DNA of 64,000 bases from a virus (lineage: Duplodnaviria > Heunggongvirae > Uroviricota > Caudoviricetes): the IMG/VR virus record IMGVR_UViG_2897358383_000002; one strand, 5' to 3'. The position numbers and the translations under genes were made by a program. Each line of letters starts with the position of its first letter. Position 1 is the stretch's first letter. Under the pieces are notes generated by a model. It had not been told where the DNA came from. It searched no databases and saw nothing but the letters and a program-made list of their open reading frames with translations. Positions 33,541 to 39,816 of the stretch are shown one piece after another.

Positions 33541-35103
33541 ATGAAAATGACAAGTATTCAACAACGTGCAGAGCTTCATCGCCAGATCTGGCAAATTGCT
33601 AACGATGTCAGGGGTTCAGTCGATGGATGGGATTTTAAGCAGTACGTTTTGGGCGCGCTTTTTTACCGTTTTATCAGCGAAAATTTTTCCAGCTATATTG
33701 AAGCCGGTGATGACAGTATCTGTTATGCGAAACTGGATGACAGCGTAATTACTGATGACATTAAAGACGATGCCATCAAAACCAAAGGTTACTTCATCTA
33801 CCCCAGTCAGCTTTTCTGCAACGTAGCGGCGAAAGCAAATACCAATGACAGACTGAATGCGGATTTAAACAGCATCTTCGTTGCTATCGAAAGTTCTGCT
33901 TACGGTTATCCTTCAGAAGCTGACATCAAAGGTTTGTTTGCTGATTTCGATACAACCAGTAACCGCCTGGGGAATACCGTTAAGGATAAAAATGCCCGCC
34001 TGGCTGCGGTTCTGAAAGGGGTTGAAGGGTTAAAACTTGGTGACTTCCACGAACATCAGATTGACCTGTTCGGTGACGCCTATGAGTTCCTGATTTCTAA
34101 CTATGCGGCGAATGCCGGTAAGTCAGGCGGCGAGTTCTTTACACCGCAGCACGTCTCTAAGCTGATTGCACAACTGGCTATGCACGGGCAGACCCACGTT
34201 AACAAAATCTACGACCCGGCAGCAGGCTCCGGTTCGCTGTTGTTGCAGGCTAAAAAACAGTTTGATGACCATATCATCGAAGAAGGTTTTTTTGGTCAGG
34301 AAATCAACCATACGACCTATAACCTGGCGCGTATGAACATGTTTTTGCACAACATCAACTACGACAAGTTTGATATCAAGCTGGGTAATACACTGACTGA
34401 GCCGCACTTCAGAGATGAAAAACCGTTTGATGCCATCGTTTCTAACCCGCCGTATTCGGTGAAATGGATTGGCAGCGATGACCCGACGCTGATTAACGAT
34501 GAACGTTTTGCCCCGGCTGGCGTTCTGGCCCCCAAATCCAAAGCTGACTTTGCGTTTGTATTACATGCGCTGAACTATCTTTCGGCCAAAGGTCGCGCTG
34601 CGATTGTCTGCTTCCCAGGCATTTTTTACCGTGGCGGCGCGGAGCAGAAAATCCGTCAGTATCTGGTCGATAATAACTATGTCGAAACCGTGATTTCACT
34701 GGCTCCGAACCTGTTCTTTGGCACCACCATTGCCGTAAACATTCTGGTTCTGTCTAAACATAAAACGGATACCAAAGTTCAGTTTATTGACGCCAGCGAA
34801 CTGTTCAAAAAAGAGACTAACAACAACATCCTGACCGATGCCCATATCGAAAAAATTATGCAGGTATTTGCCAGCAAGGAAGATGTTGCTCATCTGGCGA
34901 AATCTGTTGCGTTTGAGACTGTTGTCGCGAATGACTATAACCTGTCGGTGAGCAGCTATGTGGAAGCGAAAGATACTCGCGAAATTATCGATATCGCTGA
35001 GCTGAATGCTGAGCTGAAAACCACGGTCAGCAAAATCGACCAGTTGCGCAAAGATATTGATGCGATTGTGGCTGAAATTGAAGGCTGCGAGGTGCAGAAA
35101 TGA
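33541..35103 (+). CDS. hsdM: type I restriction-modification methyltransferase subunit HsdM (EcoR124 family, type IC), 520 aa
   Basis: NPPY motif ([10 protein letters not shown]), AdoMet motif [10 protein letters not shown]; N-terminus matches EcoR124 HsdM as I recall. Confidence 0.95.
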
Positions 35104-36356
35104 GCGAGATGAGTTATCTGGAAAAATTGCTGGATGGGGTTGAGGTTGAGTGGAAGACTCTCGGAGAAGTCGCAAAATATGTACGTGGTTTAATTTATAG
35201 CAAATCGAGTGAAAGCGCGGATGGTCAAGGCTATAAAGTGCTTCGCGCTAACAATATCACGCTGTCTAATAATTGTTTAAATTTAAATGATGTCAAGGTG
35301 GTGAGGTTCGACACCAAAGTAAAGAGTTCGCAAAAGCTATATAAGAACGACATTCTAATTAGCGCAGCAAGTGGTAGCCGTGAACATGTCGGTAAAGTTG
35401 CTTACATAGAATCTGATATTGACTACTACTTTGGCGGATTTATGGGGGTCGTCAGATGCGATGAAAAATTAAATCCACGTTATTTATTTCACGTTTTAAC
35501 AAGTGATATTTTCCAAAAATATCTTGATGAAATGTTGAATAGCTCAACCATTAACAACTTGAACTCAGCCGTAATGGGAAGATTCAAAATCCCATTACCC
35601 TGCCCAGATACCCCGGAAAAATCCCTTGCCATCCAGTCTGAAATCGTTCGGATTCTGGATAAATTTACTGCACTTACCGCTGAGCTTACCGCTGAGCTTA
35701 CCGCTGAGCTTACCATGCGTAAAAAACAGTACAACTACTATCGCGACCAGTTGTTGAGTTTTAAAGAGGGTGAGGTTGAGTGGAAGGCATTGGATGATGT
35801 TTTTGACATTGTTGCAGGCGGCGATGCACCAAAAGATGCCTTATCCGAATTTGAGACCGAGGAATTCAGCATCCCCGTTTTATCAAACGGTATAGGTAAT
35901 AAATCACTATATGGATGGACTGACAGAGCCAAGATTGAGAAACCGAGTCTCACCATATCTGCAAGAGGTACTATTGGATGGACTAGCTATAGAAGTAGAC
36001 CATTCTTTCCGATAGTGCGACTGCTGGTCTTGACGCCAAAAATTAAATTAAACTTGAAGTACGCTTATTACTTCATGAAAACCATTGAGAATAATTACAA
36101 AATCCCTGAGGCAGGCATACCCCAGCTAACTAAACCGATGCTCAAAGACATTAAAATCCCCTTCCCATGCCCCGGTAATCCGGAGGAATCTTATAACGAA
36201 CAAGCCAGAATCGCAGCGACTCTCGACAAATTTGACGTCTTAACAAATTCGATTACCGAAGGTCTTCCGCGTGAAATCGAGTTGCGCCAGAAACAATACG
36301 AGTACTATCGTGATTTACTGTTCAGTTTCCCAAAACCCAAAACTGTCAGTAATTAA
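35100..36356 (+). CDS. hsdS: type I specificity subunit HsdS with central TAEL x3 repeat, 418 aa
   Basis: two AT-rich target-recognition domains flanking conserved repeat [12 protein letters not shown]. Confidence 0.9.
35676..35711 (+). repeat. 3 tandem copies of 12-bp unit accgctgagctt (encodes TAEL x3) in hsdS central conserved region
   Basis: read directly. Confidence 0.9.
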
Positions 36357-36477
36357 TTGACCATTGCTACAGACCGGCTCACCTTAACATCCGGTCAGTA
36401 TATAGACTATTTTTTACGCGCCGGAAGTCACTCTTAACGCCCTTCCGGCTCTTGCCAGGCGGCACAAAGGATGCGCT

Positions 36478-39673: not shown

Positions 39674-39760
39674 TTACCCATGAGCGACGATGCCGCCAAA
39701 AGTGATAGAGAACAGCCAGAAATAGATCGCGGTCATAATGATTTTGAATGCCGTGTTCAT
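39674..39760 (-). CDS. candidate 28-aa hydrophobic peptide (MNTAFKIIMTAIYFWLFSITFGGIVAHG)
   Basis: AGGAG 8 nt upstream of ATG; C1 operator about 85 bp upstream; below ORF-track size cutoff. Confidence 0.3.
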   Translation of the reverse strand: MNTAFKIIMTAIYFWLFSITFGGIVAHG

Positions 39761-39788
39761 ATCTTCAGCTCCTGTGATTGATTGGATA

Positions 39789-39816
39789 CATGCCGCGCCC
39801 TTGCGGCATGTTTTTA
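39789..39816 (+). terminator. rho-independent terminator catgccgc-gccctt-gcggcatg + TTTTT
   Basis: 8-bp stem and T-run on plus strand about 195 bp after hsdR. Confidence 0.65.

Follow-up and report, generated by a model that had tools for sequence, protein, structure and literature searches.

We analyzed a 64,000-nucleotide stretch of a Caudoviricetes genome (IMG/VR record IMGVR_UViG_2897358383_000002; here called the window) and identified a gene cassette, hsdM-hsdS-hsdR, that is very probably an intact type IC restriction-modification (R-M) system of the EcoR124 family, located at the usual site of hsd genes on a P1-like phage-plasmid. The specificity gene, hsdS, contains three tandem copies of a 12-bp unit encoding the tetrapeptide TAEL, and a natural two-copy version of the same allele occurs on plasmid p1002-1. 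The tract is thus a candidate for occasional, heritable changes in the specificity of the system.

The three genes are intact open reading frames (ORFs) on the + strand, namely, hsdM (33541-35103; 520 amino acids [aa]), encoding the N6-adenine methyltransferase subunit; hsdS (35100-36356; 418 aa), encoding the specificity subunit; and hsdR (36478-39594; 1038 aa), encoding the translocase/endonuclease subunit. This M-S-R order is typical of the EcoR124 family. The hsdM stop codon overlaps the hsdS start codon (ATGA at 35100-35103), and hsdR is set apart from hsdM and hsdS, with 121 bp of noncoding DNA between hsdS and hsdR. HsdM is identical to the EcoR124II M protein (PDB 7bst_D) at 515 of 520 positions, contains the Pfam domains HsdM_N and N6_Mtase (TIGR00497 hsdM; 653 bits), and retains the DPAAGSGS and NPPY motifs. 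HsdR matches EcoR124 HsdR (2w00_A) from end to end (2255 bits; approximately 97% identity) and includes the Pfam domains HSDR_N, ResIII/SWI2_SNF2, a T1R_D3-like domain, and EcoR124_C (PF12008; E = 1e-71); its nuclease motif (D...ELK), Walker A motif (TGSGKT), and DECH motif are all unchanged. Pfam, NCBIfam, and PADLOC all returned the expected type I architecture for the cassette. An initial annotation of the window had described the cassette as complete, in type IC order, and similar to the EcoR124 family in HsdM and HsdR, and these comparisons bear out each part of that description.

The encoded subunits would be expected to form an active enzyme. An alternative is that the system is present but inactive, being either silenced or crippled by substitution relative to EcoR124, so that the repeat would have no phenotype. 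HsdR does differ from 2w00_A by approximately 26 substitutions, located within the first approximately 970 residues, but no catalytic motif is disrupted, each of the three ORFs runs its full length in the window, and the same proteins are conserved in more than 20 plasmids. Inactivity might also be read from record ON470615.2 (phage vB_EcoM-673R5; locus L002), in which hsdM and hsdR (6449-12400) are annotated as several fragments. However, the window and ON470615 are 99.87% identical over 17 kb, and the fragmentation probably stems from erroneous indels in that record or from the way it was annotated, not from true decay of the genes. We therefore consider an inactive system to be highly unlikely.

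HsdS carries two Methylase_S domains (Pfam), and its match to EcoR124 HsdS (7bst_A) is confined to the N-terminal, central, and C-terminal conserved segments. Compared with EcoR124I HsdS, 20 of the 22 N-terminal residues are identical, as are 56 of 65 residues in the central conserved region (aa 161-225; 35580-35774 on the + strand), which corresponds to the D1 helix of the coiled-coil spacer and whose differences include a 4-aa TAEL gap, and 47 of 58 residues in the C-terminal conserved region (aa 361-418; 36180-36353, + strand), which corresponds to the D2 helix. The two target-recognition domains (TRDs) are different: identity to their EcoR124I counterparts is 15% (21 of 138 residues) for the N-terminal TRD1 (aa 23-160; 35166-35579, + strand) and 26% (35 of 135 residues) for the C-terminal TRD2 (aa 226-360; 35775-36179, + strand). 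The initial annotation had proposed this alignment as a check and regarded TRDs unrelated to the EcoR124 family as a refutation. Both TRDs are indeed unrelated to those of EcoR124I, yet they are standard, shuffled modules of type IC HsdS proteins; the proposed refutation was badly posed, because what places a system in the family is its HsdM, its HsdR, and the conserved regions of its HsdS, not its TRDs.

The modular nature of these TRDs is apparent from the HsdS homologues that we examined, i.e., the best 120 matches in the protein collection, from which the exact 418-aa window protein is absent. Among these homologues, TRD1 is 100% identical in many type IC alleles with other TRD2s, and TRD2 is 99 to 100% identical in many chromosomal and plasmid type IC alleles with other TRD1s. 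Such recurrence with varied partners is the shuffling of modules long known for type I specificity genes. Because both TRDs are foreign to EcoR124I/II, the half-sites are predicted to differ from those of EcoR124I/II, and the target is presumably not GAA N6/7 RTCG. Two candidate half-sites were rejected: (i) AAC for TRD1, by way of the N-terminal TRD of EcoKI, to which identity is only 30% over 151 residues; and (ii) RTGC for TRD2, by way of homologue P0056, whose TRD2 is 100% identical to that of the window HsdS and which is labeled "EcoprrI subunit S," a label that stems from automatic annotation of a locus without prrC. The source names of ten more TRD-sharing homologues were all generic. 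Another homologue (P0002, from an ENA contig; 449 aa) has the window TRD1 in both positions (the window sites given with it are 35138-35156 and 35768-35786), and a palindromic bipartite site is therefore expected for that protein.

The TAEL tract lies within the D1 helix. The unit accgctgagctt is repeated three times, perfectly, in tandem, and in frame, at 35676-35711 on the + strand (ACCGCTGAGCTT), encoding TAEL x3 in the central helix of HsdS; the initial annotation had placed the three units at exactly this position. Tandem Repeats Finder (TRF) reported 3.5 perfect copies at 35673-35714 (42 nt; score 84), and its other rows were two trivial repeats of approximately two copies each. By our own calculation, the chance expectation for 30 consecutive positions matching at a 12-nt offset is approximately 6e-14 per 64 kb. 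A related sequence occurs at the 3' end of hsdM (34996-35018), where 1.9 copies of the 12-bp unit GCTGAGCTGAAT, which is 83% similar to the hsdS TAEL unit, encode AELNAEL. The C-terminal tails of HsdM proteins are known to resemble the conserved helices of HsdS, and the hsdM unit fits this resemblance.

The significance of the copy number is established for the prototype systems. The TAEL repeat sits in helix D1 of the coiled coil between the TRDs, and EcoR124I, with two copies, recognizes GAA N6 RTCG, whereas EcoR124II, with three, recognizes GAA N7 RTCG (Loenen et al. review, PMC3874165), in agreement with the earlier claim that two versus three TAEL copies alter the spacer. EcoDXXI and EcoprrI likewise combine three TAEL copies with N7 spacers, and in four EcoR124/EcoDXXI hybrids the spacer was altered as predicted upon a change in copy number; such changes have been attributed to unequal crossing-over at the repeat (PMC3874165).

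The hsdS gene of p1002-1 (NZ_CP021203.1; strain Z1002) is the window hsdS minus one unit, i.e., with two units, and deleting one unit from the window sequence makes the two identical at all of the 13,245 bp compared. The SegMantX preprint (bioRxiv 10.1101/2025.03.14.643293) describes p1002-1 as a conjugative plasmid fused to a phage-plasmid that resembles p50579417_1. Across approximately 80 kb, only 3 substitutions separate p1002-1 from the p50579417_1-type backbone, along with 16 gap positions, of which the TAEL unit accounts for 12; per base, change in the tract would thus have been several hundred times faster than elsewhere, a figure derived from a single event. Since the two-copy state of this allele comes from a single record whose plasmid alignment also contains four 1-nt gaps resembling sequencing errors, it might be an assembly or consensus artefact, in which case there would be no natural 2/3-copy pair for the window allele. 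We find this quite unlikely: long-read errors do not typically remove precisely one 12-bp unit and leave the reading frame unchanged, and RefSeq lists the two-copy HsdS as an intact 414-aa protein (WP_086352860.1). A separate two-copy, 414-aa protein (P0001; WP_118940257.1) shares both TRDs with it and differs at other residues, and independent 2/3-copy pairs exist for two other alleles.

These further pairs were found in a sample of 80 IMG/VR loci retrieved by HsdM, in 63 of which hsdS was readable. Two TAEL units were present in 36 of the 63 genes, three in 22, one in 1, none in 4, and four in 0. Two pairs of loci share their TRDs and differ in having two or three units; one of these pairs is otherwise identical (L029/L030), and the other has 2 residue differences (L027/L031). 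The units are mutually perfect DNA copies in 53 of 58 alleles, and the codons of the unit vary between lineages, a pattern of concerted evolution, which is what continuing gain and loss of units would produce. No three-copy allele occurs among the best 120 homologues; this is a matter of which alleles happen to have a TRD in common with the query and does not mean that the three-copy state is rare, because 22 of the 63 IMG/VR alleles have three units. Among complete genomes of Escherichia coli, in which roughly 1,400 records matched hsdS, the identical three-copy gene (protein WP_072196859.1) is present in 22 records from several countries and hosts, and the two-copy form is present only in p1002-1.

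It could be argued from these data that the tract is a true contingency locus, with high-frequency switching, mixed cultures of two- and three-copy cells, and programmed phase variation. The 30 nt of perfect register-shifted homology within the tract, the change of one unit against so few substitutions in the plasmid backbone, the recurrence of 2/3-copy pairs in other alleles, and the concerted evolution of the units would all suit such a locus. However, 22 independently sequenced records have exactly three units and one has two, no four-unit allele and only one one-unit allele were found among the 63 sampled, and two to three units of 12 bp are far below the length of classical hypermutable simple sequence repeat (SSR) tracts. 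Programmed switching thus appears unlikely. The initial annotation had called the tract a potential switch of specificity by slippage; a specificity change is supported by the natural two-copy version of the same allele, but it would be a rare event on an epidemiological timescale and not fast phase variation.

We favor the reading of an intact type IC system in which the TAEL tract is an occasional source of new specificity. In type I systems, HsdS positions a pair of HsdM subunits on an asymmetric, bipartite target, each TRD reading one half-site; the resulting M2S complex methylates one adenine per half-site, and M2S together with HsdR forms an ATP-driven translocase/endonuclease that cuts unmodified DNA. 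The TAEL units in the D1 helix would set the distance between the two TRDs. With three units, the methylated adenines are predicted to be 8 bp apart ("N7-type" spacer), and with two units, as in p1002-1, they are predicted to be 7 bp apart ("N6-type" spacer), the half-sites remaining unchanged. The 42-nt periodic tract may gain or lose units by slipped mispairing or unequal crossing-over, which would be much faster per base than substitution and rare in absolute terms. Type IC systems tolerate a new specificity in that restriction is held back at the assembly of the R subunit and not by ClpXP (PMC12707154).

The outcome would be an occasional heritable change in specificity rather than programmed phase variation, because of the 22-to-1 distribution of records and because the cassette has no linked recombinase and neither extra (silent) hsdS or hsdS' cassettes nor long inverted repeats were found in 33300-39900. 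Several points weigh against the favored reading: (i) the tract is fairly stable, as judged from the same 22 three-copy records against one; (ii) the two-copy state of p1002-1 rests on a single assembly; (iii) the N7/N6 prediction is extrapolated from four TRD combinations; and (iv) the promoter- and terminator-like sites in and around the cassette are candidates only, as the consensus scan found such sites to be no commoner than in shuffled sequence.

Comparison with known systems clarifies which of these features are shared. The closest relatives are EcoR124I/II, the type IC prototypes from plasmids R124 and R124/3, with which the window shares HsdM (99% identity), HsdR (approximately 97%), the M-S-R order, and the HsdS framework, differing in the two unrelated TRD modules. 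Like EcoR124II, the window allele has a copy number of 3, and its unit consists of the identical 12 nt, as read from primer sequences (PMC10644984). EcoDXXI (type IC; TCA N7 RTTC) also has three TAEL repeats (PMC3874165). The name EcoDXXI was not found among the abbreviated source names of the best 120 HsdS homologues; the window HsdS is unlikely to be that of EcoDXXI, although the two were compared by name only. EcoprrI, a type IC system with an embedded anticodon nuclease (prrABCD), shares the type IC organization, the three TAEL copies, and the predicted N7 spacer, but no prrC lies between hsdS and hsdR here, the gap being only 121 bp long and noncoding. Phase-variable type I systems, whether driven by SSRs or by inverting hsdS shufflons (e.g., SpnD39III), resemble the window system in that heritable specificity change passes through hsdS. 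Unlike in SpnD39III-type systems, the predicted change in the window system affects spacer length only and proceeds by whole 12-bp units; no homopolymer or short SSR was found in the cassette. Taken together, the cassette has the HsdM, the HsdR (including EcoR124_C), the conserved HsdS regions with TAEL, and the gene order that characterize type IC systems, as well as the at least two in-frame 12-bp units in the D1 helix and the natural alleles differing only in unit number that characterize TAEL length variants. It also has the flanks of a P1-flanked type IC locus, and the distinguishing features of prr-type and shufflon/SSR-driven systems are absent.

The mechanistic news in these results is limited, as the family, the rule linking TAEL copies to spacer length, and the location between P1 flanks have all been textbook knowledge since 1987-1997, and the window is identical to a plasmid that has already been deposited and annotated. 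As far as we found, neither the recognition sequence of this TRD pair nor a near-clonal natural 2/3-copy pair has been documented. It is conceivable, although we propose it only tentatively, that the window allele and its p1002-1 twin constitute a natural N7/N6 pair of an uncharacterized type IC specificity that arose within a near-clonal clinical P1-like lineage. If so, TAEL slippage would reshape restriction barriers between circulating sublineages of E. coli phage-plasmids within the time span of an outbreak, proceeding hundreds of times faster per base than substitution. The allele is common in P1-like phage-plasmids of clinical, animal, and environmental E. coli, and its specificity would bear on the host range of phages, the transfer of plasmids, and the transformation of the carrier strains. 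The near-clonal two- and three-copy plasmids provide a natural pair with which the spacer rule could be examined for a fifth combination of TRDs and the rate of specificity change in the field could be estimated. Literature searches by protein accession and by plasmid or phage name returned only a phage-plasmid survey that does not mention hsd and the SegMantX preprint on p1002-1, and a methylome-oriented search for the window hsd allele returned nothing relevant.

The genomic setting of the cassette is that of other enterobacterial type IC loci. Over the 50 kb compared, the window shows 100% identity to p50579417_1 (NZ_CP033882.1), a 97-kb P1-like phage-plasmid of E. coli 50579417 (window coordinate = NZ_CP033882.1 coordinate + 90). 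Homology to P1 stops at the left junction (33440/33441), which corresponds to position 6831 of the P1 locus L003, at the start of humD, and is regained at the right junction (39669/39670), which corresponds to position 10319 of L003, directly upstream of P1 pmgT. The 6.2-kb cassette (33441-39669), located between phd-doc and pap, thereby stands in for 3.5 kb of P1 comprising humD, lxr, hot, upfO/N/M, and pmgV/U/T. On the left flank, the genes of the P1 addiction module, doc (32763-33143; Pfam Fic/DOC) and phd (33143-33364; Pfam PhdYeFM), are both encoded on the - strand and are 97.5% identical to those of P1. On the right flank, a pap homologue of 168 aa (39860-40366, - strand; Pfam HAD_PNKP) is collinear with P1 pap and belongs to the P1 backbone.

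In the P1 record (NC_005856), the position of the left junction is annotated as the point where homology to DNA upstream of the EcoDXXI hsd locus ends, and that of the right junction as the corresponding limit for DNA downstream of the hsdR genes of EcoDXXI and R124/3. The EcoDXXI locus accordingly resembles the window in having phd-doc-like DNA upstream and pap/pmgT-like P1 DNA downstream, with identical boundaries, and in EcoR124 (R124/3) the P1-like DNA downstream of hsdR is joined at the same point. Because the junctions coincide with these boundaries, the slot beside phd-doc is the canonical location of enterobacterial type IC hsd loci. P1 flanks of such loci were reportedly described by Tyndall et al. 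in 1997. The title of that study is cited in PMC12707154 and PMC2853133. The initial annotation had pointed to the adjacency of the cassette and phd-doc as a place where P1 backbone genes would be expected; the adjacency holds, but it is not odd, as this is the published type IC location.

Several minor features flank the genes of the cassette, all on the + strand. The P1 homology boundary delimits a cassette-specific leader upstream of hsdM (33441-33540), where the hsdM promoter is presumed to lie, and a cassette-specific tail downstream of hsdR (39595-39669), which contains a perfect 9-bp hairpin (39610-39637). The consensus scan identified a promoter-like site in the hsdS-hsdR gap (36384-36413; 9/12 match), a candidate for a separate hsdR promoter. 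A terminator-like hairpin followed by a T-run (39788-39811; 10-bp stem with 6 GC pairs; tail TTTTTATTTTC) is located approximately 190 nt past the hsdR stop codon, within P1-homologous DNA. Because of this hairpin, the initial annotation had ended the cassette at 39816, a coordinate that is neither the end of hsdR (39594) nor that of the cassette, P1 homology having resumed at 39670. An unannotated 28-codon ORF (39674-39760, - strand), encoding the strongly hydrophobic peptide MNTAFKIIMTAIYFWLFSITFGGIVAHG, is situated between hsdR and pap, in P1-homologous DNA right next to the right junction; phage phi456 has a small annotated ORF at the matching place.

A 375-aa RelA/SpoT-domain protein (20237-21364, - strand; PADLOC candidate PDC-S33, E = 8e-86) is encoded between darB-like and ref/cre genes, presumably at the position occupied in P1 by the type III res-mod genes, and we take it to resemble the CapRel-type fused toxin-antitoxin defence genes of the P1-like phage SJ46. 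An anti-phage dGTPase is encoded at 4806-6161 (- strand; PADLOC dGTPase, E = 2e-148; "anti-phage deoxyguanosine triphosphatase" in RefSeq), which brings the defence modules of this phage-plasmid to at least three besides phd-doc. Between c1 and pacB, 1.7 kb (26494-28206) has no P1 homology; in the identical RefSeq record, this segment contains a KilAC-domain antirepressor, an Icd-like protein, and an ash pseudogene, and a further ant/icd set is present elsewhere on the plasmid. An insertion sequence, IS200C, occupies approximately 7907-8586 (tnpA, 8049-8507), with TnpB/InsQ encoded at 9754-10884. This IS200C copy is missing from the near-identical backbone of p1002-1 (alignment break at record positions 7817-8496) and is a second recent difference between the window plasmid and p1002-1.

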